NCBI RefSeq assembly: GCF_003018235.1
Contig: NZ_CP027437.1
DNA length: 64,000 nt
Direction: 5' to 3' (one strand)
Origin: Escherichia coli
GTDB lineage: Bacteria > Pseudomonadota > Gammaproteobacteria > Enterobacterales > Enterobacteriaceae
This document shows, one piece after another, positions 1-29,446 of this stretch. Below the pieces are notes generated by a model, which was given only the letters and a program-made list of their open reading frames with translations, was not told where the DNA came from and searched no databases. The position numbers were made by a program, and so were the translations under genes. The first letter of the stretch is position 1. The number at the start of each line of letters is the position of its first letter.

Positions 1-199
1 AACTGACAACAAGGGGAAAACGCACGACGTGCTGACCGGAAGTGATGACGGTCGCCACAGCAACACGTCTCTGGCGTGGGGAGCTGGCGTGCAGTTTAAC
101 CCGACCGAATCCGTGGCCATTGATATTGCTTATGAAGGCTCCGGCAGTGGCGACTGGCGCACTGACGGTTTCATCGTGGGTGTCGGTTATAAATTCTGA
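1..199 (+). CDS. lom: Outer membrane protein Lom (Ail/Lom family), 3' end only
   Basis: Frame ending ...VGVGYKF then TGA at 197-199, a typical Ail/Lom C-terminal beta strand; located immediately upstream of stf as in lambda. Confidence 0.7.
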   Translation, partial: TDNKGKTHDVLTGSDDGRHSNTSLAWGAGVQFNPTESVAIDIAYEGSGSGDWRTDGFIVGVGYKF

Positions 200-225
200 T
201 TAGCCAGGTAACACAGTGTTATGAC

Positions 226-252
226 AGCCCGCCGGTTCAGGCGGGCTTTTTT
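226..252 (+). terminator. Rho-independent terminator after lom
   Basis: Stem AGCCCGCC / GGCGGGCT with a 6-nt loop, followed by a T-tract (247-252). Confidence 0.7.
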
Positions 253-263
253 GTGGGGTGAAT

Positions 264-3200
264 ATGGCAGTAAAGATTTCAGGTGTACTGAAAGACGGCA
301 CAGGAAAACCGGTACAGAACTGCACAATCCAGCTGAAAGCAAAACGTAACAGCACCACGGTGGTGGTGAACACGCTGGCCTCAGAAAATCCGGATGAAGC
401 CGGGCGTTACAGTATGGACGTTGAGTATGGTCAGTACAGCGTTATTCTGTTGGTGGAGGGATTCCCGCCGTCACATGCCGGGACTATCACCGTGTATGAA
501 GATTCTCAACCCGGTACGCTGAATGATTTTCTCGGTGCCATGACGGAGGATGATGCCCGTCCGGAGGCACTGCGCCGTTTTGAAGTGATGGTGGAAGAGG
601 TGGCGCGTAACGCGTCCGCAGTGGCACAGAACACGGCAGCCGCGAAGAAGTCAGCCGGCGATGCCAGCACATCAGCCCGTGAGGCGGCAACCCATGCGAC
701 TGATGCTGCAGACTCAGCACGCGCAGCCAGCACGTCAGCCGGACAGGCCGTGTCGTCGGCTCAGTCAGCGTCTTCCAGCGCAGGAACTGCATCAGCAAAG
801 GCCACTGAAGCATCAAAAAGTGCTGCCGCTGCAGAGTCCTCAAAAAGCGCGGCGGCCACCAGTGCCGGTGCGGCAAAAACGTCAGAAACGAATGCTTCAG
901 CGTCACAACAATCAGCAGCCACTTCTGCATCCACCGCGACCACGAAAGCGTCAGAAGCTGCCACCTCAGCCCGGGATGCGGCGGCCTCAAAAGAGGCAGC
1001 GAAATCATCAGAAACGAACGCATCCTCGAGCGCCAGTAGTTCCGCTTCCTCGGCAACGGCGGCAGGAAATTCCGCGAAGGCGGCAAAAACGTCCGAGACG
1101 AACGCCAGGTCTTCTGAGACGGCAGCGGGACAGAGCGCCTCAGCTGCGGCAGGCTCAAAAACAGCGGCTGCATCATCTGCCAGTGCCGCGTCAACAAGTG
1201 CCGGGCAGGCCTCAGCCAGTGCCACTGCCGCCGGAAAATTGGCAGAAAGCGCTGCATTGTCCGCTTCAACAGCCACAACGAAGGCTGGCGAAGCCGCTGA
1301 ACAGGCCAGCGCAGCAGCGAGGTCTGCATCCGCAGCGAAGACATCCGAAACGAACGCGAAAGCGTCGGAAACCAGTGCAGAATCCTCAAAAACGGCAGCT
1401 GCATCGTCCGCCAGTTCGGCGGCGTCATCGGCATCATCTGCGTCTGCTTCAAAAGATGAGGCGACCAGACAGGCATCAGCAGCGAAAGGCAGCGCCACGA
1501 CGGCATCCACGAAGGCGACAGAGGCTGCTGGCAGTGCGACGGCGGCAGCACAGAGCAAGAATACGGCAGAATCCGCAGCAACGCGCGCCGAGACAGCAGC
1601 TAAACGGGCAGAGGATATTGCATCCGCCGTGGCGCTTGAGGATGCAAGTACGACGAAAAAGGGGATAGTACAGCTCAGCAGTGCGACCAACAGTTCGTCT
1701 GAAACGCTGGCGGCAACGCCAAAGGCAGTAAAATCAGCCTATGACAATGCAGAGAAACGTCTGCAGAAAGACCAGAACGGCGCTGATATACCCGATAAGG
1801 GACGCTTCCTGAACAACATTAACGCGGTCAGTAAAACAGACTTTGCTGATAAGCGTGGTATGCGTTATGTGCGGGTTAACGCTCCTGCAGGTGCAATATC
1901 TGGAAAATATTACCCTGTTGTTGTTATGCGTTCTGCTGGCTCAGTAAGCGAACTGGCATCAAGGGTCATTATCACCACGGCAACGCGAACCGCAGGCGAT
2001 CCGATGAATAACTGCGAGTTTAACGGATTTGTTATGCCTGGTGGCTGGACTGACAGGGGGCGTTATGCTTATGGAATGTTCTGGCAATATCAAAACAATG
2101 AACGAGCCATCCACTCAATAATGATGAGTAATAAGGGCGATGATTTGCGCTCTGTGTTCTATGTTGATGGCGCTGCTTTCCCTGTTTTTGCGTTTATCGA
2201 AGATGGCCTGTCAATATCCGCACCTGGTGCTGATCTCGTTGTTAATGATACGACCTATAAGTTTGGGGCAACAAATCCGGCGACTGAATGTATCGCGGCG
2301 GACGTTATCCTTGATTTTAAGAGTGGGCGTGGTTTTTATGAGTCTCATTCGTTAATTGTTAACGATAACTTGTCGTGCAAAAAACTTTTTGCCACAGACG
2401 AAATTGTAGCGCGTGGTGGTAATCAGATTCGAATGATAGGTGGGGAGTATGGTGCATTATGGCGTAATGATGGCGCTAAAACTTACCTGCTGCTTACCAA
2501 TCGAGGTGATGTTTATGGTGGCTGGAATACATTAAGACCGTTTGCTATTGATAACGCAACCGGCGAACTGGTTATTGGAACCAAACTGTCCGCAAGTCTG
2601 AACGGTAATGCATTAACAGCAACAAAGCTGCAAACGCCAAGACTGGTTTCTGGTGTTGAGTTTGATGGTTCCAAAGATATTACTTTAACCGCCGCGCATG
2701 TGGCTGCTTTTGCCAGAAGGGCAACGGATACATATGCCGATGCGGATGGTGGCGTTCCCTGGAATGCCGAATCAGGCGCTTACAATGTCACCCGCTCTGG
2801 CGACAGCTATATTCTGGTTAACTTCTATACCGGAGTCGGAAGTTGCCGGACCCTGCAGATGAAGGCGCATTACAGAAATGGTGGTCTGTTCTACCGTTCT
2901 TCAAGAGATGGCTATGGTTTTGAGGAAGACTGGGCAGAAGTTTATACCTCGAAAAATCTTCCACCAGAAAGCTACCCAGTCGGCGCACCAATCCCGTGGC
3001 CATCAGATACCGTTCCGTCTGGTTATGCCCTGATGCAGGGGCAGACTTTTGACAAATCTGCCTACCCGAAACTTGCAGCCGCTTATCCGTCAGGCGTGAT
3101 CCCTGATATGCGTGGCTGGACGATTAAGGGCAAGCCCGCCAGTGGTCGTGCCGTATTGTCTCAGGAACAGGATGGCATTAAATCGCATACCCACAGCGCC

Positions 3201-3677
3201 AGCGCATCCAGTACGGATTTGGGGACGAAAACCACATCGTCGTTTGATTACGGCACTAAATCCACGAATAACACCGGGGCGCATACGCACAGTCTGAGTG
3301 GCTCTACGGGGTCTGCCGGTGCTCATACTCATGGTAATGGTATTCGTTGGCCAGGAGGCGGCGGTTCTGCGTTAGCATTTTATGATGGCGGTGGGTTCAC
3401 TTATGTCCAGGATTCACAGTATCAAGTAAGCCCGGGGACTTCTTCCAGTAGATCGTATTATCAACGTATTCAGACACAGTCAGCAGGTGCTCATACCCAC
3501 TCGCTGTCTGGTACTGCAGCAAATGCTGGCGCACATGCACATACTGTAGGTATTGGTGCGCATACGCACTCGGTTGCGATTGGGTCACATGGACACACCA
3601 TCACCGTTAACGCTGCTGGTAACGCGGAAAACACCGTCAAAAACATCGCATTTAACTATATTGTGAGGCTCGCATAA
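264..3677 (+). CDS. stf: Side tail fibre protein, lambda Stf-like mosaic (about 1137 aa from the ATG at 264)
   Basis: N-terminus [26 protein letters not shown]... and C-terminus ...[31 protein letters not shown] match my recollection of lambda Stf; a long Ala/Ser/Thr-rich low-complexity segment and a central block resembling Rac StfR. The ORF track starts at GTG 258; ATG 264 is preferred. Confidence 0.9.
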
Positions 3678-4252
3678 TGGCATTCAGAATGAGTGAACAA
3701 GCACGGACCATAAAAATTTATAACCTGCTGGCCGGAACTAATGAATTTATTGGTGAAGGTGACGCATATATTCCTCCTCATACAGGTCTGCCTGCAAACA
3801 GTACCGATATTGCACCGCCAGATATTCCGGCTGGCTTTGTGGCTGTTTTCAACAGTGATGAGGCATCGTGGCATCTCGTTGAAGACCATCGGGGAAAAAC
3901 GGTCTATGACGTGGCTTCCGGCGACGCGTTATTTATTTCTGAACTCGGCTCATTACCGGAAAATGTCACCTGGTTATCCCCGGAAGGGGAGTTTCAGAAG
4001 TGGAACGGTACAGCCTGGGTGAAGGATACGGAAGCAGAAAAACTGTTCCGGATCCGGGAGGCGGAAGAAACAAAAAACAGCCTGATGCAGGTAGCCAGTG
4101 AGCATATAGCGCCGCTTCAGGATGCTGTGGATCTGGAGATCGCAACGGAGGAAGAAACCTTGTTGCTGGAAGCCTGGAAAAAGTATCGGGTGTTGCTGAA
4201 CCGTGTTGATACATCAACTGCACCGGATATTGAATGGCCAGCCCTACCGTAG
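3677..4252 (+). CDS. tfa: Tail fibre assembly protein Tfa
   Basis: 191 aa, [24 protein letters not shown]..., lambda Tfa-like; the start overlaps the stf stop (TAATG). Confidence 0.9.
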
Positions 4253-4349
4253 GGTAAGATATATAAATTCTATAATTAGAAGTATCTTTCCATTTAAGGC
4301 TAGGAAGGGGGGCTTGGAAAACGTAAGGAATCTCACACCGAGATTATTT

Positions 4350-4940
4350 TTATATATCAGGTGTCTGATTTTTTGCTTTAGCTCTTAAAATGGTTTGCCG
4401 CGAGGTTTTGAATTCTTGGGCAATGTCACTTATATTTATACCTGACTTAATTTGCTCTAGTACCCTCTGTATTTGTTCATCATTTAACACAGGTGGGCGA
4501 CCAAATCGCTTTCCTGCGCCCCGTGCTCTTAATATCCCTGAATGAGTACGCTCAAGTAAAAGGTCTCGCTCAAATTCAGCGACTGCTGAAATTACTTGCA
4601 TCATCATTTTTCCAGGTGGACTGGTCAGGTCAACGCCCCCCAATGCTAAGCAATGCACTTTGATACCTGCTTTGGTCAGTTGTTCCACCGTTTTACTGAT
4701 ATCCATTGGATTACAACCGAGGCGATCCAGTTTTGTGACAATCAATGCATCACCTCTTTTCAGTCGATCAAGCAACTGGTTAAAACCAGGACGCTCACTG
4801 GTTGCTGCTGAGCCGCTAATTTGTTCTTCAATTATTTGCTGAGATTTGATGTTAAAACCTGCACTTTCGATTTCCCGACGTTGATTTTTGGTTGTCTGTT
4901 CCAGAGTTGATACCCGACAGTAAGCATAAATTCGAGACAT
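4350..4940 (-). CDS. pin: Serine recombinase, Pin-type DNA invertase
   Basis: 196 aa, [15 protein letters not shown]... with a resolvase/invertase N-terminal catalytic domain and C-terminal HTH; same size and context as K-12 pinQ/pinR. Confidence 0.9.
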
Positions 4941-5258
4941 AGTGAGATCTTCTATACGAAATTGGTGTACATATCATAATGCATCTCAGAAAATAATTTT
5001 GATTATTTTTGTACATATTTGTATGTACACGTTCGAAAATAAACGAATGCGTATGCAACCCCGTAATTTTGGTGAGACCCAAAATCGATTTTGTGAAAAA
5101 TGGCCTTAACTCGGTTTGTTTTTCGAGTTCCGGGGGGACTCAAGGAAGAAGAATAGTGTTGCGTGTTATTTTAACCAGATTTCAAGTTGTTTGGTCGTGA
5201 AAAAGTGGAGCAAAATGTTGTTAAAGTGGAAAAATGATAAAAAAGTAAGTTTATTATA

Positions 5259-5492
5259 TTACATTTTACCATTTAAATTTTTGTTGTCTTTAAGAACTGA
5301 TATCGCTGTTTGTAATAATTCTTTGTTATCCAGCCATGACTTTTTCTTTATGTTTCCTTCAATGTAATCAAGCAATGTTCTGGTATTGATAGGTCTTCCC
5401 TGTTTTGCTACTTCCACTACAGCATCCCCTAGGATAATTCTTACTTCAGGAAGCTGCGCAGGGAACCACTTTAGGGTGTCTTTTGATTTCAT
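5259..5492 (-). CDS. ydfK: Small prophage protein YdfK/YnaE family (cold-shock-induced in K-12)
   Basis: 77-aa product MKSKDTLKWFPAQLPEVRIILGD... from the internal ATG, which has an AAGGA RBS 9 nt upstream; the 88-aa ORF from 5525 is the less likely start. Confidence 0.8.
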   Translation of the reverse strand: MKSKDTLKWFPAQLPEVRIILGDAVVEVAKQGRPINTRTLLDYIEGNIKKKSWLDNKELLQTAISVLKDNKNLNGKM

Positions 5493-6277
5493 GAAGATAT
5501 TCCTTAAAATATTATTGATTTTCATTGCGATATTGTATGTCTGATTCAGGATATGTTGACTTATACATCGGTTTTGTCTGGGTTATTGGATATGCCAATC
5601 CCTAATTTTATTAGAGCATGACTAAAAATGCTGAATATGATAAGGAGCGAAGTGATTATCAGTATGCTGTTCATATAGCCTCGAATTAGTAATGTGTTAT
5701 ATATGATATAGTTGACAATTTTTATCCTGGGTGTTCTTAAAGTTCGTAGATAAACATTGTCGTTTCAGGTATACAGGAATGCTAACAGGTGGCGGCAAAA
5801 ATCAGGCGGTTTATGGCGCAAGCTGAAGTGGCAACTGCAAACTATCTTATGCAGAGACTCTACACGGATTGGGTTTAAAAGTATACATAGATAACAGTTT
5901 TTATCTGAAGAAGAAAAATATCAAGGTGATATAGCCTATATGCCTTTGATGCGGAGGAATGAATGTGATGGGAGTGATGTATCTGAATAGTTGAAAAACC
6001 GCAGACACGCCTTATGCAAGAACGTGCTGCGGTTGGCTGGTAAATTTTTCGATAGTGCGAGTATTGAATGATTTCCAGCCGTTATTGATTTTACGCGTAA
6101 ATCCATGAAAAAACTACTTATCTGTTGGGGAGTTTTTTTGGGGCATATATGGGACAGAAATAGGCCCCAGATAGACACTGAGATCGAACTTAGGATGCTT
6201 TTTAAAAAATGCAACTATCTGAAAAAACCTAGAAAACGCCAAGGAAACCACAGGATGGGAAAAAACACCTGTGAATT

Positions 6278-7561
6278 ATGGATTTCCAGTTATATTCGCT
6301 CGGCGCAGCGTTAGTGTTTCATGAAATATTTTTTCCTGAATCATCAACGGCAATGGCGTTAATTCTGGCAATGGGAACCTACAGTGCAGGTTATGTGGCG
6401 CGTATTGTCGGAGCATTTATTTTCGGCAAAATGGGCGACAGAATCGGGCGTAAAAAAGTGCTCTTTATTACCATCACTATGATGGGGATCTGTACCACCT
6501 TAATTGGTGTGCTGCCGACCTATGCACAAATTGGTGTGTTTGCGCCAATTTTGCTGGTGACGCTGCGTATTATTCAGGGGCTGGGGGCAGGCGCGGAAAT
6601 TTCCGGTGCCGGCACGATGCTGGCGGAATATGCACCAAAAGGTAAGCGCGGAATTATCTCCTCATTTGTGGCTATGGGAACTAACTGCGGAACCTTGAGC
6701 GCAACGGCAATCTGGGCCTTTATGTTCTTCATTCTCAGTAAAGAGGAACTGCTGGCGTGGGGATGGCGTATACCGTTCCTGGCGAGCGTTGTCGTGATGG
6801 TCTTTGCTATCTGGTTGCGTATGAATCTGAAAGAAAGCCCGGTCTTTGAGAAGGTTAACGACAGCAACCAACCGACAGCAAAACCTGCACCTGCTGGTAG
6901 CATGTTCCAGAGCAAATCCTTCTGGCTGGCAACAGGGCTGCGTTTTGGTCAGGCTGGTAACTCCGGTTTAATTCAGACTTTCCTTGCAGGCTATTTAGTA
7001 CAGACGTTATTGTTTAACAAAGCAATTCCAACAGATGCATTGATGATCAGTTCGATTCTCGGCTTTATGACCATTCCGTTCCTTGGTTGGTTATCCGATA
7101 AAATTGGTCGCCGGATCCCGTATATTATTATGAATACCTCCGCGATTGTGCTGGCATGGCCAATGCTTTCTATCATCGTAGATAAAAGCTATGCCCCGAG
7201 CACCATTATGGTGGCACTGATTGTGATTCATAACTGTGCGGTGCTGGGATTATTTGCTCTGGAAAACATTACCATGGCAGAAATGTTCGGCTGTAAAAAC
7301 CGCTTTACCCGGATGGCCATTTCTAAAGAAATTGGTGGTCTTATCGCTTCCGGTTTTGGTCCTATCCTGGCGGGTATTTTCTGCACCATGACGGAGTCCT
7401 GGTATCCGATCGCCATTATGATCATGGCATATTCAGTGATTGGTTTAATCTCTGCGCTGAAAATGCCAGAAGTGAAAGACCGTGATTTAAGTGCGCTGGA
7501 AGACGCTGCGGAAGATCAACCGCGTGTTGTCAGAGCTGCGCAACCTTCCAGAAGTCTTTAA
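6278..7561 (+). pseudogene. ydfJ: MFS metabolite:H+ symporter YdfJ, 5'-truncated at the prophage junction (may still be expressed from the internal ATG)
   Basis: 427-aa ORF beginning MDFQLYSLGAALVFHEIFFP..., which by comparison with KgtP/ProP-type transporters is missing roughly 25-30 N-terminal residues; an in-frame stop lies at 6272-6274. Confidence 0.75.
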
Positions 7562-9444: not shown

Positions 9445-9525
9445 GCTCACATCTTTTTTGATGCATGCATGAGCCATAAGGCGGGGGGAAAGACTCTCAC
9501 CCCGGATGGGATGAGAGGAAATGAA

Positions 9526-10212
9526 TTACTCTTCGCTAAACCAGTCGCTGTTTTCCTGACGGATCTGGCGCACGGATTCGCTGATTTCCTGCAAATGTTG
9601 CGTCATTGCACGTTCTACCGCATCGCCATCACGTTTTTGCAGGGCAGAGAAAATCTCAAGATGCTGGCGTAACAGCATTTCTGGTGGAGAAACGTGGTCG
9701 AAACTCATATAGCGCACGCGATCAACGGTCGCTTTCAGGTTCTCAATGGTATCCCACGCCAGTTGACAGTCGGCAATCTGGGTCAGGAGTTGATGGAAGT
9801 TGTCATCAAGTTCAAAAAAATCATCCAGTTGCTTGCGCTCAATGGCAATGCGTTGCTGGTGAAGATTTTGTTCCAGTTGGTAGCACTGGCTTTCGGTAAT
9901 CATGCTCGCCGCCCGACGCGCCACCGCGCACTCAATGGCCTGACGGATAAAACTGCCGTTGCGCACCTGGGCCATGGAAATTTTGTTGACGTAGCTGCCA
10001 CGCTGCGGACGAATTTGAATCAGGCCGTTTTCCGCCAGTTTAATAAAGGCTTCACGAACCGGCTGGCGTGACACATTGAAACGAACAGAAACTTCTTTTT
10101 CCGACAACGGTGTGCCTGGTGCAATCAGGCAATGGACAATGTCGCGACGAAGAATACGATAAATCTGCTGATTGACAGGCTGTGTGGGATTAAGTTGCGT
10201 TTCGACGGTCAT
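9526..10212 (-). CDS. rspR: GntR/FadR-family transcriptional regulator RspR (YdfH)
   Basis: 228 aa with an N-terminal winged HTH ([21 protein letters not shown]) and a FadR-type C-terminal domain. Confidence 0.9.
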
Positions 10213-11183: not shown

Positions 11184-13229
11184 ATGACAACAATGAATCC
11201 TTTCCTTGTGCAAAGCACACTGCCGTATCTGGCTCCCCATTTTGATCAAATTGCCAATCATCACTATCGCCCGGCATTCGATGAGGGAATGCAGCAAAAG
11301 CGGGCAGAAATTGCTGCCATCGCGCTTAACCCGCAAGCGCCTGATTTCAACAATACTATTCTGGCACTGGAACAAAGCGGAGAATTACTTACCCGCGTTA
11401 CCAGCGTCTTTTTTGCGATGACTGCGGCGCATACCAATGATGAATTACAGCGTCTTGATGAACAGTTTTCCGCTGAACTGGCGGAACTGGCTAATGATAT
11501 CTATCTGAACGGTGAATTATTCGCGCGGGTAGATGCTGTCTGGCAGCGCCGTGAATCTCTTGGGCTTGATAGTGAATCCATCCGCCTGGTGGAGGTGATT
11601 CATCAGCGTTTTGTCCTTGCCGGAGCCAAACTTGCGCAAGCTGATAAAGCAAAATTAAAAGTACTGAATACAGAAGCTGCGACCCTAACCAGCCAGTTTA
11701 ACCAGCGGTTACTGGCAGCAAATAAATCCGGCGGTCTGGTTGTGAACGATTTCGCGCAGCTGGCAGGAATGAGTGAGCAAGAGATTGCGCTGGCGGCAGG
11801 GGCGGCTCGCGAGAAAGGTCTGGATAACAAATGGCTGATTCCGTTGCTGAATACCACCCAGCAACCAGCGCTTGCTGAACTGCGCGATCGCGCGACGCGT
11901 GAAAAACTGTTCACTGCGGGCTGGACGCGAGCGGAAAAAAATGATGCCAATGATACCCGCGCTATCATTCAACGTCTGGTGGAGATCCGCGCGCAGCAGG
12001 CGAAACTGCTTGGTTTCCCTCATTATGCCGCATGGAAAATCGCCGATCAGATGGCAAAAACGCCAGAAGCAGCACTCAACTTTATGCGGGAAATTGTTCC
12101 AGCGGCGCGTCAACGTGCGAGCGATGAATTAGCCTCCATACAGGCGGTTATCGATAAGCAGCAGGGCGGGTTTAGCGCGCAGCCGTGGGACTGGGCATTT
12201 TATGCCGAGCAGGTAAGACGTGAGAAATTCGATCTCGATGAATCGCAGCTCAAGCTATATTTTGAATTAAACACGGTGTTGAATGAAGGTGTATTCTGGA
12301 CCGCGAATCAGCTCTTCGGTATTAAGTTTGTCGAACGTTTTGATATTCCTGTCTACCATCCTGACGTTCGTGTGTGGGAAATTTTTGATCATAATGGCGT
12401 GGGGCTGGCGTTATTTTACGGTGATTTCTTCGCCCGTGATTCAAAAAGCGGCGGTGCATGGATGGGCAATTTTGTTGAGCAATCATCGCTTAATGAAACG
12501 CATCCGGTAATTTATAACGTCTGCAATTATCAGAAACCCGCTGCCGGTGAGCCTGCGTTGTTACTCTGGGATGATGTCATAACCTTATTCCATGAATTTG
12601 GTCATACGTTGCACGGCCTCTTTGCCCGCCAGCGTTATGCCACACTTTCCGGCACCAACACGCCGCGTGATTTTGTCGAATTTCCGTCGCAAATCAACGA
12701 ACACTGGGCAACGCATCCGCAGGTATTCGCTCGCTACGCCCGGCATTATCAGAGCGGGGCAGCAATGCCTGACGAACTGCAACAGAAAATGCGTAATGCC
12801 AGCTTGTTCAACAAAGGGTATGAGATGAGCGAACTGCTTAGCGCCGCACTTCTCGATATGCGCTGGCATTGCCTGGAAGAAAACGAAGCAATGCAGGATG
12901 TCGATGATTTCGAATTGCGGGCGCTGGTGGCGGAAAATATGGATCTTCCCGCTATACCGCCACGCTATCGCAGCAGTTATTTCGCCCATATTTTTGGTGG
13001 CGGATATGCCGCAGGTTATTACGCTTATCTGTGGACACAAATGTTGGCCGATGATGGTTACCAGTGGTTTGTTGAGCAGGGCAGATTAACGCGTGAAAAT
13101 GGGCTGCGTTTTCGCGAGGCGATCCTTTCCAGAGGTAACAGCGAGGATCTGGAACGCCTGTATCGACAATGGCGCGGTAAGGCACCTCAGATTATGCCGA
13201 TGCTGCAACATCGTGGCTTGAACGTATAA
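11184..13229 (+). CDS. dcp: Dipeptidyl carboxypeptidase II (M3 family zinc peptidase)
   Basis: 681 aa from MTTMNPFLVQSTLPYLAPHFDQI..., HEFGH zinc motif, AGGAG RBS at 11173-11177. Confidence 0.95.
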   Translation: MTTMNPFLVQSTLPYLAPHFDQIANHHYRPAFDEGMQQKRAEIAAIALNPQAPDFNNTILALEQSGELLTRVTSVFFAMTAAHTNDELQRLDEQFSAELAELANDIYLNGELFARVDAVWQRRESLGLDSESIRLVEVIHQRFVLAGAKLAQADKAKLKVLNTEAATLTSQFNQRLLAANKSGGLVVNDFAQLAGMSEQEIALAAGAAREKGLDNKWLIPLLNTTQQPALAELRDRATREKLFTAGWTRAEKNDANDTRAIIQRLVEIRAQQAKLLGFPHYAAWKIADQMAKTPEAALNFMREIVPAARQRASDELASIQAVIDKQQGGFSAQPWDWAFYAEQVRREKFDLDESQLKLYFELNTVLNEGVFWTANQLFGIKFVERFDIPVYHPDVRVWEIFDHNGVGLALFYGDFFARDSKSGGAWMGNFVEQSSLNETHPVIYNVCNYQKPAAGEPALLLWDDVITLFHEFGHTLHGLFARQRYATLSGTNTPRDFVEFPSQINEHWATHPQVFARYARHYQSGAAMPDELQQKMRNASLFNKGYEMSELLSAALLDMRWHCLEENEAMQDVDDFELRALVAENMDLPAIPPRYRSSYFAHIFGGGYAAGYYAYLWTQMLADDGYQWFVEQGRLTRENGLRFREAILSRGNSEDLERLYRQWRGKAPQIMPMLQHRGLNV

Positions 13230-13593
13230 ACACCACCAATGGCTGGCCTGGATTTATCGCCAGACCAGCCTCGTTATAGCAGTAATTGCAGCAGCTGGGT
13301 GAGGGCAAACTTCACCGCTAATGCGAATGCCGTTTCGCAGTCGCCAGCAAAATTACTTTTTTTGTATACCCTTCCGTTATAATAATTTTCAAATTTATAA
13401 ATCTGATTGTTCTGAAATATGTTTAAGACTCTTTAATCTTCTTCTTACTTTAGTGAGTAAAATTCTCTGAATATTTGACAGCTAGTTGCCTGATTTTAAA
13501 TGCCTTATAACAATTGGCAGTATTCTTATTTGTCAATTATAAAAATAGCAACCAGACTTAATAAGTCAAACCAAACGCAATTAAGGAGTCAGT

Positions 13594-13986
13594 ATGAAAT
13601 TTCAGGCCATTGTATTAGCAAGTTTTCTTGTCATGCCTTATGCGTTGGCAGATGACCAGGGCGGATTAAAACAGGATGCAGCGCCACCGCCGCCTCATGC
13701 AATAGAAGATGGCTATCGCGGAACCGATGATGCAAAAAAAATGACCGTTGATTTCGCAAAAACCATGCACGATGGCGCTTCGGTTTCACTGCGCGGTAAT
13801 TTGATTTCTCACAAAGGAGAAGACCGTTACGTTTTTCGCGATAAGAGCGGTGAAATTAATGTTGTTATTCCTGCGGCAGTCTTTGATGGACGAGAAGTTC
13901 AGCCGGACCAGATGATCAACATTAGCGGAAGTCTGGATAAGAAAAGCGCTCCGGCCGTCGTTCGGGTCACTCATTTGCAGAAATAA
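13594..13986 (+). CDS. ydeI: Periplasmic OB-fold (BOF/YgiW family) stress protein YdeI
   Basis: 130 aa with signal peptide [19 protein letters not shown]. Confidence 0.85.
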
Positions 13987-14240
13987 AAATAAATTAGCCT
14001 GATGGCCTGAACTACTGGGCCATTAGGGTATTGGGTTATGCTATTTGTCATCCTTTTAATTGCGATAATGCAGGCTTAATTTACAGAATTAAACACTTTT
14101 TTATCTGCTGATTTTGTTTCAAATCACAATGTTATCTCAGAGATGACTCATAACTTAGGATTTCTATGAAAATATTGACGTAATTTTGCTTTTCTCTCGT
14201 TAGAATAGCGCGCACAAGGAACTGTGAAAAAGGAGTGGCA

Positions 14241-15131
14241 ATGATCAAGAAGACAACGGAAATTGATGCCATCTTGTTAAATCTCAATAAGGCTATCGAT
14301 GCCCACTACCAGTGGCTGGTAAGTATGTTTCGCAGCGTAGTCGCGAGAGATGCCAGTAAGCCAGAAATAACGGATAACCATTCTTATGGACTGTGCCAGT
14401 TTGGTCGGTGGATTGATCATCTGGGACCACTCGATAATGATGAATTACCTTATGTTCGGCTAATGGATTCTGCCCATCAACATATGCATAACTGTGGTCG
14501 GGAATTAATGCTGGCTATTGTTGAAAATCACTGGCAGGACGCGCATTTCGACGCCTTTCAGGAGGGGTTGCTTTCTTTTACTGCGGCATTAACCGATTAC
14601 AAAATTTATTTGCTGACGATCCGTAGCAATATGGATGTTTTGACGGGATTGCCGGGTCGTCGGGTTCTTGATGAATCCTTTGATCATCAGTTACGCAACG
14701 CTGAGCCTCTGAATCTTTATTTAATGTTGTTGGATATTGACCGATTTAAATTGGTTAATGATACCTACGGGCATTTAATCGGCGATGTAGTATTACGCAC
14801 CCTGGCAACTTACTTAGCCAGTTGGACGCGCGATTACGAAACGGTTTATCGCTACGGTGGCGAAGAATTTATCATTATTGTCAAAGCGGCTAATGATGAA
14901 GAAGCATGTCGTGCAGGTATCAGAATTTGCCAGTTAGTCGATAACCATGCCATCACACATTCTGAAGGGCATATCAACATTACCGTGACAGCAGGTGTGA
15001 GTCGCGCATTTCCTGAAGAGCCTCTGGATGTGGTCATTGGAAGAGCGGACCGGGCAATGTATGAGGGTAAGCAAACCGGAAGAAATCGCTGTATGTTTAT
15101 TGACGAACAAAACGTGATTAACCGAGTTTAA
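14241..15131 (+). CDS. dgcZ: Diguanylate cyclase DgcZ (zinc-sensing CZB domain plus GGDEF)
   Basis: 296 aa from MIKKTTEIDAILLNLNKAIDAHYQW...; GGEEF motif; AAGGAG RBS at 14229-14234. Confidence 0.95.
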   Translation: MIKKTTEIDAILLNLNKAIDAHYQWLVSMFRSVVARDASKPEITDNHSYGLCQFGRWIDHLGPLDNDELPYVRLMDSAHQHMHNCGRELMLAIVENHWQDAHFDAFQEGLLSFTAALTDYKIYLLTIRSNMDVLTGLPGRRVLDESFDHQLRNAEPLNLYLMLLDIDRFKLVNDTYGHLIGDVVLRTLATYLASWTRDYETVYRYGGEEFIIIVKAANDEEACRAGIRICQLVDNHAITHSEGHINITVTAGVSRAFPEEPLDVVIGRADRAMYEGKQTGRNRCMFIDEQNVINRV

Positions 15132-16953: not shown

Positions 16954-17853
16954 ATGTCGCGAAAAGATGGGGTGTTGGCGCTACTGGTAGTGGTCGTATG
17001 GGGGCTGAATTTTGTGGTCATCAAAGTGGGGCTTCATAACATGCCACCGCTGATGCTGGCCGGTTTGCGCTTTATGCTGGTCGCTTTTCCGGCCATCTTT
17101 TTTGTCGCACGACCGAAAGTACCACTGAATTTGTTGCTGGGGTATGGATTAACCATCAGTTTTGCGCAGTTTGCTTTTCTTTTTTGTGCCATTAACTTCG
17201 GTATGCCTGCTGGACTGGCTTCGCTGGTGTTACAGGCACAGGCGTTTTTTACTATCGTACTTGGCGCATTTACTTTCGGTGAGCGGCTGCATGGCAAACA
17301 ATTGGCGGGGATTGCCTTAGCGATTTTTGGCGTACTGGTGTTAATCGAAGATAGTCTGAACGGTCAGCATGTGGCGATGCTCGGCTTTATGTTGACCCTG
17401 GCGGCAGCATTTAGTTGGGCGTGTGGCAACATCTTCAATAAAAAGATCATGTCGCACTCAACGCGCCCGGCGGTGATGTCGCTGGTAATCTGGAGCGCAT
17501 TAATCCCAATCATTCCCTTCTTTGTTGCCTCGCTGATTCTCGATGGTTCCGCAACCATGATTCACAGTCTGGTCACTATCGATATGACCACCATCTTGTC
17601 TCTGATGTATCTGGCGTTTGTGGCGACAATTGTTGGTTATGGGATCTGGGGGACGTTACTGGGACGCTATGAAACCTGGCGGGTTGCACCGTTATCGTTA
17701 CTGGTGCCCGTAGTAGGACTGGCAAGTGCGGCACTATTGTTGGATGAACGCTTAACGGGTCTACAATTTTTCGGTGCGGTGCTCATTATGACCGGGCTGT
17801 ATATCAATGTATTTGGCTTGCGGTGGCGTAAAGCGGTAAAGGTTAGAGGCTAA
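16954..17853 (+). CDS. eamA: O-acetylserine/cysteine exporter EamA (DMT superfamily)
   Basis: 299 aa from MSRKDGVLALLVVVVWGLNFVVIKVGL... Confidence 0.9.
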   Translation: MSRKDGVLALLVVVVWGLNFVVIKVGLHNMPPLMLAGLRFMLVAFPAIFFVARPKVPLNLLLGYGLTISFAQFAFLFCAINFGMPAGLASLVLQAQAFFTIVLGAFTFGERLHGKQLAGIALAIFGVLVLIEDSLNGQHVAMLGFMLTLAAAFSWACGNIFNKKIMSHSTRPAVMSLVIWSALIPIIPFFVASLILDGSATMIHSLVTIDMTTILSLMYLAFVATIVGYGIWGTLLGRYETWRVAPLSLLVPVVGLASAALLLDERLTGLQFFGAVLIMTGLYINVFGLRWRKAVKVRG

Positions 17854-17855
17854 AC

Positions 17856-17900
17856 CATACGCACAGAATGTGATGCCAGCACTCTGTGCGTATGCTTTTA
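17856..17900. terminator. Terminator hairpin after eamA (12-bp stem plus T-tract)
   Basis: CATACGCACAGA / TCTGTGCGTATG followed by CTTTTA; overlaps the stop codon of the convergent regulator gene. Confidence 0.65.
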
Positions 17901-18596
17901 TCGCGGGAAAAAGTACTTTACCTGGAACTCGAAAATATTGCTGTAAAGTAACGAATAATCCAGCGGAATAGAGTTACTGTCCACAGCCTGGGTCTGAATT
18001 TTAAGTATGGGATCCCGTGGGCTGATCCGTAAAATACTGGCGATTTCTGGGGTAGGAAAAGTAGGGGAGAAAGTTTCAAAGGTGCCAATGATTTTGATCC
18101 CGCATTCGTTCTCAATATACGAAAATTTGGATTTTTGCATATGTGCTACGGTTAAATCAGGAAAACGTGCCACTGACATCCACGTTTCTTCTAATTGTGC
18201 TGCATTATCCTCAATGAATCGCAGTCTCTTTATGTAATAAACCTGCTCACCAGTCACTAAATTCAGCTCAGTCGCAATAGGGGGAGAAGCATCCTGCACT
18301 TCAAATTTCATAATCTGACTTCCTGCCTCCTTGCCGCTTTTATGCGCAATTTCACTGAAGCTGTTCATGTGATCAATGTGTGCAACAAAATTCTTTTTTT
18401 GAATATATGTTCCTGAACCATGCTTTCTATGAATAATTCCTTCGCCTTCCAGCAAGGATAATGCCTTACGCAGGGTATTACGCGAAACATTATAACGAAC
18501 AGCGAGTTCAGCTTCTGACGGCAACAAATCACCAACATGCCATGAATAGCCATTGATCTCGGATTTAAGTAAGCGGGCAATCTTTTGAAAAATCAC
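17898..18596 (-). CDS. GntR/HutC-family transcriptional regulator (HTH plus UTRA effector domain)
   Basis: 232 aa; HTH segment AELAVRYNVSRNTLRKAL; divergent from the PTS operon. Confidence 0.85.
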   Translation of the reverse strand: MIFQKIARLLKSEINGYSWHVGDLLPSEAELAVRYNVSRNTLRKALSLLEGEGIIHRKHGSGTYIQKKNFVAHIDHMNSFSEIAHKSGKEAGSQIMKFEVQDASPPIATELNLVTGEQVYYIKRLRFIEDNAAQLEETWMSVARFPDLTVAHMQKSKFSYIENECGIKIIGTFETFSPTFPTPEIASILRISPRDPILKIQTQAVDSNSIPLDYSLLYSNIFEFQVKYFFPR

Positions 18597-18755
18597 TTTT
18601 GCACCTTTTAAGAGCCATTGAAAACAAGGAGTTGAGTCCTGATTGGTTTATCGTATGGCCGAGTCGTTTAATTATTACCCTGATGTTGAACAACTTTATT
18701 GCTGTATTACTGTGATCAATGTACCAGGACGTATAGCTACTGCGGGATATGATAT

Positions 18756-18768
18756 TTACACAATGTAA
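18756..18768. promoter_or_regulatory. Candidate operator palindrome TTACA-caa-TGTAA in the regulator/PTS divergent region
   Basis: Perfect 5-bp inverted repeat about 30 bp upstream of the IIB start codon. Confidence 0.3.
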
Positions 18769-18794
18769 TCTGTTATATACCAGTAAGGGAAAAT

Positions 18795-19106
18795 ATGAAA
18801 AAGATATTGTTAGTTTGCGCTGCGGGCATGTCAACCAGTATGCTGGTTAAACGTATGATTGATCATGCTAACGCTATTTCACTTGAAGTTAATATTTCCG
18901 CATTGGCGATTGCAGAGGCTAAAGGGAAAATTAAAAATAACGAAGTTGACGTTGTTTTACTTGGCCCGCAAGTTCGCTTTCAGAAACCAGAGATTGAAGC
19001 TGTTGCACAGGGGAAAATGCCTGTAGCTGTTATCGAGATGAAAGACTATGGCACCATGAACGGACAGGCAGTTCTTGAATTTGCGATGAAACTACTGCAA
19101 GAGTAA
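18795..19106 (+). CDS. PTS lactose/cellobiose-family EIIB component
   Basis: 103 aa, MKKILLVCAAGMSTSMLV... with the catalytic Cys in the CAAGMSTS motif. Confidence 0.9.
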   Translation: MKKILLVCAAGMSTSMLVKRMIDHANAISLEVNISALAIAEAKGKIKNNEVDVVLLGPQVRFQKPEIEAVAQGKMPVAVIEMKDYGTMNGQAVLEFAMKLLQE

Positions 19107-19229
19107 GAATCTAATATTATTAAACTATTACCTGAACTAACTTTTCACACATCATAAAATGGATATGGCATACATGCTTTATTGGGATGTATAAATATCC
19201 AGAACAACACGTATAAAAAAATGAGATTA

Positions 19230-20543
19230 ATGACCTCATTCGAACGTGGAATGGAACGTTTTCTTGTTCCAGTTGCTATCAAGTTAAACTCACAAAAACA
19301 TGTTGCAGCGGTGAGAGATGGATTCGTTTTTACGTTTCCAATTATCATGGCAAGCTCATTAATTATATTAATAAACTTTGCCATATTATCGCCAGACGGC
19401 TTTATTGCCGGACTGCTGCATCTGAACAGCGTTTTTCCCAACCTTGAAAAAGCACAAGCTATTTTTACTCCGGTAATGAATGGCTCTGTAAATATCATGT
19501 CAATTATGATTGCTTTCCTGGTCGCCAGAAATATGGCGATTAGCTATGAGCAAGATGATCTTTTATGCGGATTAACGGCAATAGGCGCATTTTTTATTGT
19601 TTATACGCCATATCAGATGATAGATGGACAAGCATTCCTGACGACCAAATATCTCGGCGCACAGGGGTTGTTTGTTGCTGTTATCGTTGCATTAATCACC
19701 AGTGAAATATTTTGTCGCTTAGCTCGAAACCCAAAAATCACCATAACGATGCCGGCATCTGTACCTCCTGCGGTAGCGCGTTCATTTAAAGTTTTATTGC
19801 CAATATTTTTTGTCATGGTGTTCTTTTCCGCACTTAATTATTGCCTGACACTGATATCCCCGGCAGGATTAAACGATCTCATTTACACATTAATCCAGAC
19901 GCCGCTCAAACATATGGGAACGAATATCTTTGCGGTAATTATCCTGGGGGCTGTGGGTAATTTCCTGTGGGTGCTGGGGATCCACGGACCTAATACCACC
20001 TCGGCAATTCGAGAAACTGTTTTTTCTGAGGCTAATCTGGAGAATCTCTCCTGGGCCGCTCAACACGGCACTACCTGGGGCGCGCCATATCCGATTACCT
20101 GGACTTCTATTAATGATGCATTCGCCAACTGCGGCGGTTCAGGCATGACGTTGGGATTATTGTTGGCTATTTTCATCGCTTCTAAGCGTGCGGAATACCG
20201 TGATCTGGCAAAAATGTCATTTATCCCCGGTATTTTCAATATCAATGAACCGATAATGTTCGGCCTTCCTATTGTACTTAACCCCATCATGATGGTGCCG
20301 TTTATTCTGGTTCCCATTGTTAACTGTGCCATTGGTTACTGCTTTGTTTCGATGGAAATTATTCCACCGGTTGCTTATGCCGTGCCCTGGACTACGCCCG
20401 GACCTTTAATTGCTTTCCTCGGAACCGGGGGAAACTGGCTGGCGTTACTGGTGGGTTTTTTATGTTTAGGTGTGGCGACAATGATCTATTTACCTTTTGT
20501 TATTGCAGCCAACAAGGTCAATAACATGACAACTAACGGATAA
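19230..20543 (+). CDS. PTS lactose/cellobiose-family EIIC permease
   Basis: Polytopic membrane protein; the N-terminus aligns to ChbC ([15 protein letters not shown]). Start is uncertain: ATGs at 19182, 19221, 19230 and 19251. Confidence 0.85.
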   Translation: MTSFERGMERFLVPVAIKLNSQKHVAAVRDGFVFTFPIIMASSLIILINFAILSPDGFIAGLLHLNSVFPNLEKAQAIFTPVMNGSVNIMSIMIAFLVARNMAISYEQDDLLCGLTAIGAFFIVYTPYQMIDGQAFLTTKYLGAQGLFVAVIVALITSEIFCRLARNPKITITMPASVPPAVARSFKVLLPIFFVMVFFSALNYCLTLISPAGLNDLIYTLIQTPLKHMGTNIFAVIILGAVGNFLWVLGIHGPNTTSAIRETVFSEANLENLSWAAQHGTTWGAPYPITWTSINDAFANCGGSGMTLGLLLAIFIASKRAEYRDLAKMSFIPGIFNINEPIMFGLPIVLNPIMMVPFILVPIVNCAIGYCFVSMEIIPPVAYAVPWTTPGPLIAFLGTGGNWLALLVGFLCLGVATMIYLPFVIAANKVNNMTTNG

Positions 20544-26031: not shown

Positions 26032-27222
26032 CTATTGCGTCTGTTCTTCGAGTGTCACTGGCCAGCGGCGAAATATAATGATTGACCATATTAACGCGGC
26101 AAAAGCAGGCACCGCGCCCACATAACCAATCATCGACATTGACCAGTGCAGACTCACCTGATTACCTACCAACGCACCCGCCCCGATTCCAATATTAAAT
26201 ATCCCGGAGAATAGCGCCATCGCGACGTCGGTGGCATCTGGTGCCAGCGCCAGCACTTTAACCTGCATACCAAGCCCGATGATCATCATCGCGATCCCCC
26301 AGAAAATACTTAGCACCCCGAGGTGTATTTCACTGTTCGCCGCAGGTAGCAGCAGTGCGAGGCACACCAGCAACAACGCAATCGCCGTACTCACCAACGC
26401 AGACGCATACTGATTACCCAGTTTACCGAAAATCACGCTGCCAATAATGCCCGCACCACCGAGTAATAATAGTAATGCCGTGGCAAAGTTGGCGCTGAAT
26501 CCCGCAATGTTTTGCACAAAAGGCTCGATATAGCTGTATGCCGTGTAATGGGCGGTGACAACCACCACAGTTAACAAATAAATGCTCATTAATGCCGGGC
26601 GGCGGAACAATAGCGGGAGGCTTTTCAATGAACCGGAATGCTCACTGGGCAGCAAGGGAAGTAACTTAATCAGGCACAAAAGGGTAATAAACGCCCCGAT
26701 ACCAATCGCGAAGAAGGTCATTCGCCAGCCAAAATACTGCCCCACAATGCGCCCGAGAGGTAAACCTAATACCATCGCCAGTGCAGTACCGGTGGCAATT
26801 AAACTCAATGCCTGTGCTCGCTTCCCGGCCGGAGCCATACGGATCGCCAGAGACGCCGTAATCGACCAGAAAATCGCATGTGCAAAAGCCACACCAATGC
26901 GACTGATCACCAGAACGGTAAAACTCCACGATAAAAACGACAGTACGTGGCTGGCAATAAACACCACAAACAGGCAGATCAGTAATTTGCGCCGTTCAAC
27001 CTGGCTGGTCATTAACATAAAAGGCAATGACATTAGCGCTACTACCCATGCGTAAATGGTCAACATAATGCCGACCTGAGCGGTTTGCATGTGAAAACTT
27101 TGCGCAATGTCAGAGAGCAGGCCAACTGGGACAAATTCGGTGGTGTTGAAGATGAAGGCGGCGACTGCCAGCGTAACGACCCGTAGCCACGCCACTTTGC
27201 GGGAAACAGTGTTTGTTGTCAT
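26032..27222 (-). CDS. sotB: MFS sugar efflux transporter SotB (YdeA)
   Basis: 396 aa, 12-TM MFS protein; synteny next to marC. Confidence 0.9.
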
Positions 27223-27371
27223 AACAGATTATCGGGTGAGTTGCGAAAAAGTGATGAAATGATCTTAAAACGGTTAATGATGTGAATACAATGCATTTGT
27301 GATCTGGATCGCGTTTTCCGTTTCTCTGACGCTGATTCTTTCACGCGTCAGAGAGTCGGTCACATCACTGT

Positions 27372-28487
27372 TTAATGACGTTCAGGGAGGTCTGGCGTTT
27401 TGGCGGTTGCGGGTATAGGTGGTCTGACAGGGGAGCGAGGCCTGTTTTTCACCAGGTCTTCATGAGTAACTTTTGGCGGCGTTTCATTTTTTATAAAAAG
27501 TTTGAGGGTCTTGCGCGCCATATGTTTGATAATTTTATCATCACTTAATGATGCTGGCATCAACACGTCAATCAAATCACTTTCATTGGGATTCATAAAT
27601 TGGTGATAGTGCAATAACATATTGGCGAAAAATAAAAACAAGTCCTGAAAATGTGGAAAATCTTGTTCTGCTAAAATGGATAAAAAGCAGATGCAGACTT
27701 CGGGTAGTACATGTTTGTTAGAACCTAGTGAATCCATCAGACTTTGCAATAAATCCTCTTTTAATTCGCTGTCCGTTATATCGAGAATAGCGGTAAGCAA
27801 GTTAGGTTCTTTATTCCCGAACCATCTGTGAACCTCAGAGTTATTCCATAATCGGGGGAGTATGACAAAATTACCGCGAGAGATAAAATTCAGGACAAGC
27901 AAATCAAACTGGCGTAAGTAATCTGCAGCGGTATGGTGATCCGGATGCAGGGGTTCAATATGTGGCGTATGCGCTCTTTTGATAGGAACGCCAGGGTTGA
28001 TTATTGGGAATTGTTCAATAAAGTCATTCAGAAACAGAAAGAGTACACGCTCGACGCCGGTCTGAAATACGCGCCCCATAGTGACAGGCTTTGGGTTGGG
28101 AGCGCAAAAAATATTAATTTCTCCATCATGGCGGAAATTATCTAAATAAATAGGGCTTAAATTTATTACTACCTGAAATTCAATATTTTCTTTGTGTCTT
28201 CCATTCTTGACGGGATAAGTGAGTTTAAACTGAACCTTTTCATTGTATAGCGTGTCGTTACCCCGAAAAGAAGTCCTCTGAATATATGATAAGTTGTCAA
28301 GGTTATTAAATATCTTTTTTGTGGCTGAGTTGATGTTTAAAGACGTGCGCCACTCTTCATCACATATTATTGTACTTAGCGCATCAATAAAATCCTTTAA
28401 AACTTCTTTTACCTGAGGTGCAATATTACGAACGGGAAAATCATAAGGAAGAGATATGTAATTGCTGATGCTTACTGGCGTAACCAT
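27372..28487 (-). CDS. yneK: Uncharacterised protein YneK
   Basis: 371-aa ORF, visibly AT-rich relative to its neighbours, no recognisable domain motifs. Confidence 0.75.
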   Translation of the reverse strand: MVTPVSISNYISLPYDFPVRNIAPQVKEVLKDFIDALSTIICDEEWRTSLNINSATKKIFNNLDNLSYIQRTSFRGNDTLYNEKVQFKLTYPVKNGRHKENIEFQVVINLSPIYLDNFRHDGEINIFCAPNPKPVTMGRVFQTGVERVLFLFLNDFIEQFPIINPGVPIKRAHTPHIEPLHPDHHTAADYLRQFDLLVLNFISRGNFVILPRLWNNSEVHRWFGNKEPNLLTAILDITDSELKEDLLQSLMDSLGSNKHVLPEVCICFLSILAEQDFPHFQDLFLFFANMLLHYHQFMNPNESDLIDVLMPASLSDDKIIKHMARKTLKLFIKNETPPKVTHEDLVKNRPRSPVRPPIPATAKTPDLPERH

Positions 28488-28570
28488 ATTTGCCCCATAT
28501 AGTCATAAGTCATCGGAGCATCACTATATAGAGCATATTAGCCGCAAGAACTATCAAAAATAGCTCATTG

Positions 28571-29446
28571 CTAACTCTGTTTTGCCGAGTCAGACACATC
28601 CAGTAGTTGAATAAATGCCTCAAGCGGACGCGTTTTCGCACCGCGACGCCAGACCAGCCAGGTTGTTAACCAACGCCATTGCTCAGCTAACGGCCACGCT
28701 TCAACCTGGTGATGCCCCGGCATACTTTCCAGCATAGAGCGTGGAATAAGCGCAATGCCTGCTCCTGCGACCACACAGGCCAACATCCCGTGATACGACT
28801 CCATCTCGTGAATAGTTCCCGGAGCGGCACCGTCAGCATGAAACCAGCTCTCGAAGTGGCGACGATACGAACAATTGGCGCGGAAGGCATAAATGTTACT
28901 GCCATTAACCTGACTGGCACGGGTTACTGGCGCATGTCCTTGTGGCGTGACAATCATCAGCTCCTCGCGGTACACCGGTATCCCGTCAATGGCAGTATGG
29001 TTAATGGGCCCATCAATAAACGCCGCATTCAGTTTTCCCTCCAGCACCCCTTCCAGCATAGTGCCGGAAGGGCCGGTGGAAAGTGAAAACTGAATTTTGG
29101 GATAACGACGGTTAAATTCCGCCAGCGTGGCCGGAATGCGCACTGCTGCGGTGCTTTCCAGCGAACCAAGAGAAAATAAACCTTGCGGCTCATCGCCAGC
29201 GACAATGCTCCGCGCTTCATCCACTAATGCGAGAATTTGTTGGCTATAGCGTAAAAAGTTATGCCCGGCAGGCGAGAGACGTAAACGCTGATTCTCGCGA
29301 ATAAACAGATCAACCCCCAGTTCTGTTTCCAGCTGGCGTAGACGGGTAGTGAGATTCGACGGCACGCGATGCACTTTTGCTGCAGCCTGGGTTATGCTGC
29401 CAGCTTCGGCAACCGCGTTGAACATCTCCAGTTGGGTCAGATCCAT
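28571..29446 (-). CDS. yneJ: LysR-family transcriptional regulator YneJ
   Basis: N-terminal HTH ([40 protein letters not shown]) and LysR substrate-binding domain. Confidence 0.9.

Follow-up and report, generated by a model that had tools for sequence, protein, structure and literature searches.

Why does a gene of no assigned function, poorer in GC than the genes on either side of it, sit between ptrR and ydeA in the Escherichia coli chromosome, and where did it come from? In a 64,000-nucleotide (nt) stretch of E. coli DNA (NCBI RefSeq assembly GCF_003018235.1, contig NZ_CP027437.1; hereafter the window), a first-pass annotation had picked out a 371-amino-acid (aa) open reading frame (ORF), called it yneK and read it as horizontally acquired. 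Our analysis makes it highly probable that yneK is a real protein-coding gene on ~1.26 kb of foreign AT-rich DNA, inserted once, silenced by H-NS/StpA in strain K-12 and conditionally useful but dispensable.

The name is right. The ORF lies exactly where it had been reported and opens with ATG, and the NCBIfam equivalog NF033404 (‘putative protein YneK’) matches residues 1–371 over profile positions 1–371 at 810.2 bits (E 1.9e-244), a full-length match above the curated cut-off of 40 bits. The RefSeq annotation of the orthologue is likewise yneK, so this is the already annotated, uncharacterized E. coli gene. Over the yneK region, the window shares 99.4% identity with strain Ecol_316 and ~97% with K-12-like strains. 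The window reads mar-ydeA-yneK-ptrR-sad-glsB, followed by yneG, a diguanylate cyclase gene, uxaB, yneE, tam and the lsr operon, and the gene and its two flanks are placed as follows:

27372 to 28487, minus strand: yneK coding sequence, 371 aa, 42.9 kDa, isoelectric point 6.3
28571 to 29446, minus strand: ptrR/yneJ (LysR regulator), upstream flank; last 2–4 codons and stop codon come from inserted DNA
26032 to 27222, minus strand: ydeA/sotB (major facilitator superfamily arabinose exporter), downstream flank

The first-pass annotation had described yneK as visibly more AT-rich than its neighbours, and base counts agree: its GC is 39.3% against 51–54% for the flanking genes (0.393; sotB/ydeA 0.510, yneJ/ptrR 0.539, whole window 0.474). 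GC at third codon positions (GC3) is 0.387, and 0.50–0.58 in the neighbours. On an index similar to the codon adaptation index, scored against 19 window genes, yneK is the poorest of 20 (0.628 vs 0.652–0.769). The E. albertii orthologue (0.362) and a divergent E. coli allele (0.380) are GC-poor as well. Across the 64 kb, 3.8% of all 1,116-bp windows are as AT-rich as yneK, and roughly eight further stretches are likewise low in GC. Stretches equal to or below yneK lie at ~1–6700, 4056–6705, 13051–14641, 17681–20262, 45414–47492, 56003–58233 and 62052–64000, with the minimum (0.345) near 4817. The best-matching genome carries Qin-like prophage remnants (tail-fibre fragments, pinQ and ydfK) to the left of ydfJ and a frameshifted autotransporter gene to the right of lsrK.

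Occupied and empty versions of the site locate the foreign DNA. We compared 80 loci anchored on ptrR, one genome per species, across Enterobacteriaceae. ptrR and ydeA are adjacent, with a gap of 108–252 bp, in Salmonella (2 loci), 13 of 22 Citrobacter-labelled loci and Trabulsiella. The site is also empty, with a gap of 115–169 bp, in four Escherichia other than E. coli, namely sp. MOD1-EC7003, sp. E1V33, E. whittamii and the species represented by strain SCPM-O-B-8794. Among the loci compared, the yneK insert occurs in E. coli and E. albertii alone, within a spacer of 1,354–1,364 bp with a GC of 0.37–0.40. In most other genera, ptrR and ydeA are separated by 1–5 kb of other, GC-rich genes, or no ydeA lies close by. 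Sequence shared by occupied and empty sites ends at ~27304–27332 on the ydeA side and at ~28588–28599 in the last ptrR codons, and the ~100 bp preceding ydeA (27223 to ~27320) belong to the ancestral sequence, being conserved out to Salmonella and Citrobacter. These limits define the insert and its two junction repeats:

27321 to 28578 (± ~10 nt), minus strand: inserted AT-rich segment of ~1,258 bp, made up of yneK with a 91-bp upstream and a 51-bp downstream region
28579 to 28587, minus strand: left junction direct repeat (cggcaaaac), within the last ptrR codons (S-A-K), matching the single CGGCAAAAT(GA) of empty sites
27312 to 27320, minus strand: right junction direct repeat (cgg-aaaacg), in which 1 nt of the left copy is deleted

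The E. albertii locus can be aligned to the window over the entire insert and both junctions, which argues for a single insertion event rather than two. The terminal sequence of the ancestral gene ptrR, CGGCAAAAT-GA, is present as a single copy in empty sites and on both sides of the insert in occupied ones. In E. albertii, the two copies are exact (10/10, both CGACAAAACG, 1,276 bp apart; P~7e-4 by local resampling) and were reported independently by a repeat finder (family D11); in E. coli, one side reads CGGCAAAAC and the other CGG-AAAACG. The 9–10-bp flanking repeat is likely, though not proven, to be a target-site duplication. The insert supplies the final 2–4 codons and the stop of ptrR, and the resulting ptrR tail differs between E. 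coli, K-12-like strains, E. albertii and the ancestral form. PtrR of the window has 291 aa (TAG stop), compared with 293 aa in K-12-like strains and E. albertii, and its C-terminal tail is different in every lineage examined.

This architecture bears on one alternative, in which an insertion sequence left the insert as its fossil and YneK as a decayed or domesticated transposase. A 1.26-kb unit, 89% of it filled by a single ORF and flanked by a 9–10-bp direct repeat, fits such an origin; ISAs1/H-repeat or IS4-type elements are alike in unit size, ORF length and duplication size. The ends of the insert, however, show no terminal inverted repeats pairing with each other in either the window or E. 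albertii, and no DDE or transposase domain was found in Pfam, NCBIfam or PHROGs at E<=10. The predicted secondary structure (from low-confidence models) runs from a four-strand meander into an all-helical region, not in the beta3-alpha-beta-alpha-beta order of RNase H. With one locus per genome (median) and no relatives among ~15 billion proteins, phages or plasmids, yneK is unlike any insertion sequence family, and a sustained ratio of nonsynonymous to synonymous divergence (dN/dS) of ~0.17 in an immobile single copy would be unexpected for a dead transposase. We consider the fossil explanation very unlikely.

The empty sites decide a second alternative, namely that yneK was born de novo from ancestral non-coding DNA between ptrR and ydeA and owes its AT-richness to that intergenic origin. 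An orphan without homologues, of intergenic-like composition and sitting in a spacer, is what this would produce. The insert DNA, though, is absent from the spacers of the outgroups and of the four Escherichia (108–250 bp), in which alignable sequence is limited to the ptrR end and the ~100 bp that precede ydeA. With no ancestral 1.26-kb non-coding template, de novo origin is essentially refuted.

Expression data from K-12 show how the cell treats the insert. In an edgeR table comparing wild type with an hns-stpA mutant, yneK (b1527) has a log fold change of -5.65 (p 1.3e-67), where a negative value is defined as lower expression in the wild type than in the mutant, a ~50-fold derepression (PMC4288151 supplement). 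In the same table, ptrR stands at -2.1 (~4-fold) and ydeA at +0.47, which is not significant (PMC4288151). A derepression of ~50-fold is the signature of xenogeneic silencing by H-NS/StpA in K-12. The first-pass annotation had also attached weight to yneK sharing a strand with sotB/ydeA. The shared strand is a fact, but it has no functional meaning, because ydeA is not derepressed together with yneK; yneK transcription therefore stops short of ydeA. No function emerges from other literature, which reports in vitro RNA polymerase and NtrC SELEX (systematic evolution of ligands by exponential enrichment) peaks in the AT-rich spacer, and multi-gene deletions.

Is a silenced orphan of this kind a functional gene at all? 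It might instead be a spurious or decaying ORF in AT-rich junk. Its ~50-fold silencing, the lack of any reported knockout phenotype, its deletion or truncation in many lineages and its failure to appear in the proteome supplements searched are in keeping with that idea, as is a dN ~5 times that of the neighbours. The substitution pattern speaks otherwise. In all six pairwise comparisons, some of them between sequences saturated at synonymous sites, yneK dN/dS is 0.15–0.21 (NG86) or 0.17–0.30 (YN00), and the NG86 values hold at dS>1; neighbouring genes range from 0.005 to 0.10. Judged by these rates, constraint on the protein is real but relaxed relative to the neighbours. The 371-codon frame stays open in AT-rich DNA, with no indels, in 37 distinct full-length sequences spanning 67–98% identity, and 196 of the 371 columns, including a motif in the C-terminal tail, are invariant across them. 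The upstream region is moreover as conserved as second codon positions. We regard the junk explanation as very improbable; on the evidence of these alignments, yneK is under long-term purifying selection and is a genuine gene.

Synonymous divergence also dates the insert. Between E. coli and E. albertii, dS is 1.15–1.23 for yneK and 0.44–1.24 for the flanking genes (NG86), so the insert is about as old as the split between the two species. Horizontal acquisition, as first proposed, is supported by empty sites in the outgroups, defined and shared junctions, ~50-fold derepression and the lack of a homologue outside Escherichia; one qualification is that the acquisition is ancient, predating the E. 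coli/E. albertii split, and was not followed by amelioration of GC. In a tree of four flanking genes (4,080 nt), E. albertii falls outside a clade of the four empty-site species plus E. coli with 100% bootstrap support. A single gain near the base of the genus with later losses is the simplest reading of this distribution. On this reading, one insertion placed AT-rich foreign DNA in the last ptrR codons, between that gene and ydeA, close to or at the base of Escherichia, and in the lineages of E. coli and E. albertii its descent has since been mostly vertical.

A divergent yneK allele (locus L007, positions 179–1294; 83% aa identity; cluster P0004 with 138 members, labelled E. coli and ‘Escherichia sp.’) differs from the window with a dS of 0.59 in yneK but of 0.20 in the adjacent ydeA, which is 100% identical in aa. 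As far as these two genes go, the contrast implies either a recombination breakpoint or an old allelic dimorphism at yneK. A further observation concerns MOD1-EC7003, the closest empty-site relative of E. coli (locus L009, positions 6847–6960). Its site has an E. coli-type ptrR end, then ~55 bp of filler and then ancestral-type ptrR tail sequence; the filler has no similarity to yneK or to any fetched locus.

Several points weigh against an acquired, singly inserted, silenced gene. yneK is present in E. albertii and E. coli and absent from the four lineages between them, a pattern that needs at least two scarless losses or else an ancient transfer in which homologous recombination used the conserved flanks. 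The site in MOD1-EC7003 can be read either as a secondary loss or as never having been occupied. The junction repeat is exact in E. albertii only; the E. coli copies carry an indel, and because of this 1-nt difference the ungapped repeat test is not significant there. No donor or mobile copy turned up in species outside Escherichia, phage records or true plasmids, and the foreign origin is consequently argued from outgroup absence, composition and silencing. The H-NS evidence consists of expression data, not binding, and comes from K-12, not the window strain; an H-NS chromatin immunoprecipitation table with yneK was not found, and the supplements of PMC4720273 do not mention the gene. yneK was also not found among the supplementary tables searched from one large proteome study, an absence that is consistent with silencing but not conclusive; the protein product is on that account a predicted one.

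The 77 nt 5′ of the start codon are 86% identical between E. coli and E. albertii, compared with 51% at four-fold sites and 58% at third positions, a degree of conservation equal to that of second codon positions. Three elements stand out, the invariance of the upstream blocks being judged on six aligned sequences:

28548 to 28570, minus strand: upstream block 1, CAATGAGCTATTTTTGATAGTTC, invariant, holding the dyad GAGCTAT-N5-ATAGTTC
28507 to 28535, minus strand: upstream block 2, TGCTCTATATAGTGATGyTCCGATGACTT, invariant save y (C/T)
27323 to 27354, minus strand: hairpin (TCTCTGACGC-12 nt loop-GCGTCAGAGA) 17 nt past the yneK stop; dG -25.5 kcal/mol, z -4.1

The dyad occurs once in the window, and block 1 is a candidate operator or -35-region element. 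Block 2, a candidate -10, transcription start or 5′ untranslated region (UTR) element, lies within an imperfect inverted repeat (28488–28506 and 28520–28538). Going by this conservation, the upstream spacer as a whole (28488–28570) is probably an operator plus core promoter for some regulator. Expression of yneK would then need a condition-specific factor acting on the conserved dyad and promoter blocks. On the downstream side, the hairpin keeps its stem, with a diverged loop, in E. albertii and in the B2/83% alleles; it has no U-tract and no Rfam family match. The hairpin would act as a 3′ end or insulator that stops yneK transcription from entering ydeA, and the unchanged expression of ydeA in the hns-stpA mutant fits such a boundary.

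The statement that YneK has no recognizable motifs stood up in every search. Pfam gave only a sub-threshold CotH match (E=0.14), PADLOC anti-phage defence models gave 0 families at E<=10, PHROGs nothing below E=0.038 and the PDB sequence profile no match, and simple motif scans revealed no catalytic motif. yneK thus neither equals its flanks in GC nor has a clear domain assignment. Homologues form 22 clusters among 5.8 billion, all from Escherichia or Shigella; when 1.84 billion representatives were searched exhaustively with a HMMER profile, fragments of yneK itself were all that came back, and overall no homologue outside Escherichia was found among ~15 billion proteins. There was no phage copy in 50,697 phage records, and matches in plasmid collections were mislabelled chromosomes. 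NZ_CP141089.1, NZ_CP134663.1 and NZ_OL790696.1, filed in a plasmid database at 4.8–4.9 Mb, are E. coli chromosomes, and three smaller ‘plasmids’ have the yneK deletion remnant described below and hence contain chromosomal segments.

Two other records at this locus are mislabelled or contaminated: SMXE01000224.1 (L008), filed as ‘MAG: Caldithrix sp.’, is 95–100% identical to E. coli proteins over sad-ptrR-yneK-ydeA-marC, and CACSKA010000003.1 (L043), filed as ‘Chryseobacterium sp. 18061’, holds an Enterobacteriaceae ptrR/ydeA locus. In E. albertii NBRC 107761 (L013, positions 9468–9755), marC matches residues 1–96 only, whereas the other E. albertii locus (L004) has the full 221 aa; by this comparison, marC may be disrupted in the E. 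albertii type strain.

YneK is predicted to be soluble (maximum 19-residue hydropathy 1.22), with no transmembrane segment and no signal peptide. The structure prediction that had been suggested as a check gave low-confidence models only, and remote-homology profile searches assigned no domain. Two AlphaFold runs reached a predicted local distance difference test (pLDDT) score of 47 and 50 and a predicted template modelling (pTM) score of 0.35 and 0.47; they agree in secondary structure. These low-confidence models lay out helices at ~24–62, a four-strand beta-meander at ~66–128, helices at ~135–333 and a disordered tail at 336–371. The tail is basic, 25% proline and predicted to be disordered, with an invariant RPRSPV...KTP...RH motif that suggests, from its conservation, a docking motif. 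Tentatively, YneK could be a non-enzymatic protein-binding or adaptor factor that is expressed only when silencing is lifted, with an alpha/beta N-domain, a helical-repeat C-domain and a proline-rich linear motif in its disordered tail. A bolder idea, which we think doubtful, makes it the sole survivor of an unsampled protein lineage, possibly with a new fold: the Escherichia ancestor would have captured it, and selection would have maintained it for some role in association with a host, such as that of a cryptic factor that is secreted or interacts with the host. The RPRSPV...KTP tail would then dock a partner, and the upstream dyad would be the switch through which some regulator overrides H-NS silencing.

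The same tail invites a more specific reading, in which YneK is a type III secretion substrate or effector (of ETT2 or LEE) whose proline-rich end is its means of acting on host proteins. Like many effectors, yneK is AT-rich, H-NS-silenced and genus-restricted. Its N-terminal 15 residues are rich in Ser, Thr, Ile, Pro and Asn and free of acidic residues in both E. coli and E. albertii; its disordered tail has an invariant PxxPxR (PRSPVR) and S/T-P sites; and both species retain the gene, with deletions in genomes such as that of uropathogenic E. coli (UPEC) strain F11. Phylogroup B2 is likewise not known to carry ETT2. Short proline motifs and Ser-rich N termini are, however, common by chance, and the neighbours (ptrR, sad, glsB, ydeA and marCRAB) are core metabolic and regulatory genes, with no island, prophage or adjacent chaperone gene. 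yneK is present and under selection in K-12 and commensals, and no likeness to a known effector was found by sequence or fold. The sole association of yneK with adherence in the literature is statistically void after correction (PMC11540155). Composition and short motifs are what speak for an effector, and we judge it decidedly unlikely.

How dispensable the gene is can be read from natural genomes. Among complete E. coli genomes, 5,417 of 5,426 match the region and 4,232 retain at least 80% of it; ~22% (~1,185) are without most of yneK. One recurring form of loss is an internal deletion:

27391 to 28402, no strand assigned: ~1,012-bp internal deletion in strain F11 and all four sampled low-coverage genomes

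The deletion leaves a scar: in F11, the remnant comprises the first ~28 and last ~6 codons and is annotated as a pseudogene, and the remnants in the four low-coverage genomes have the same size (343–344 bp in 4 of 4). Many shortened protein clusters also exist, such as a 258-aa Shigella sonnei form, of which some may be contig-end partials. Loss of yneK is certainly ongoing. A K-12 yneK knockout had no validated phenotype in a CAST screen, and the CAST host-factor match is unvalidated (PMC12757027). The gene would accordingly be one that is useful under some conditions and otherwise dispensable.

The annotation of yneK and the class to which it belongs were already known; added here are a map of the insertion, an estimate of its age, evidence of selection, the conserved blocks of the regulatory region and the natural deletions that recur. 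yneK belongs to the ‘y-ome’ of E. coli, those genes of the best-studied bacterium to which no function has been given. It does offer a small and clean model of how a foreign orphan gene can be retained under silencing yet lost again and again, with experimental handles in the dyad, the tail motif and the natural deletions, which amount to knockouts in about one-fifth of E. coli genomes. Should YneK turn out to interact with the host, the lack of its gene in genomes like that of UPEC F11 would become interesting.

Set beside known systems, yneK resembles single-ORF insertion sequences (ISAs1/H-repeat and IS4) in its ~1.26-kb unit, one ~370-aa ORF and 9–10-bp flanking direct repeat; unlike them, it lacks inverted repeats, a DDE domain and an RNase H-like order, and it is single-copy and without relatives. 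For ARM/HEAT-type alpha-solenoid protein-binding domains, Pfam finds no ARM or HEAT repeat and Foldseek no significant match, at a model pLDDT of 47–50; matches to such folds are generic for helical bundles of any kind. With Enterobacteriaceae ORFans, yneK shares the lack of a homologue outside the genus, AT-richness, dN ~5 times that of its neighbours and a patchy distribution; typical ORFans are much shorter than 371 aa, and yneK, unlike them, has no link to phage, with no phage or plasmid relative found. A further parallel is with the xenogeneic genes that H-NS/StpA silence in K-12 (PMC4288151, PMC3923964 and PMC4720273), which are likewise AT-rich, absent from sister taxa, poorly adapted in codon usage, ~50-fold derepressed in an hns stpA mutant and dispensable in the laboratory. 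yneK departs from them in being a single-gene insert and not part of an island or prophage, in being ancient yet unameliorated in GC, and in its clear purifying selection and strongly conserved promoter region. In aggregate, yneK is an ordinary member of a well-known class, that of H-NS-silenced, horizontally acquired orphan genes.

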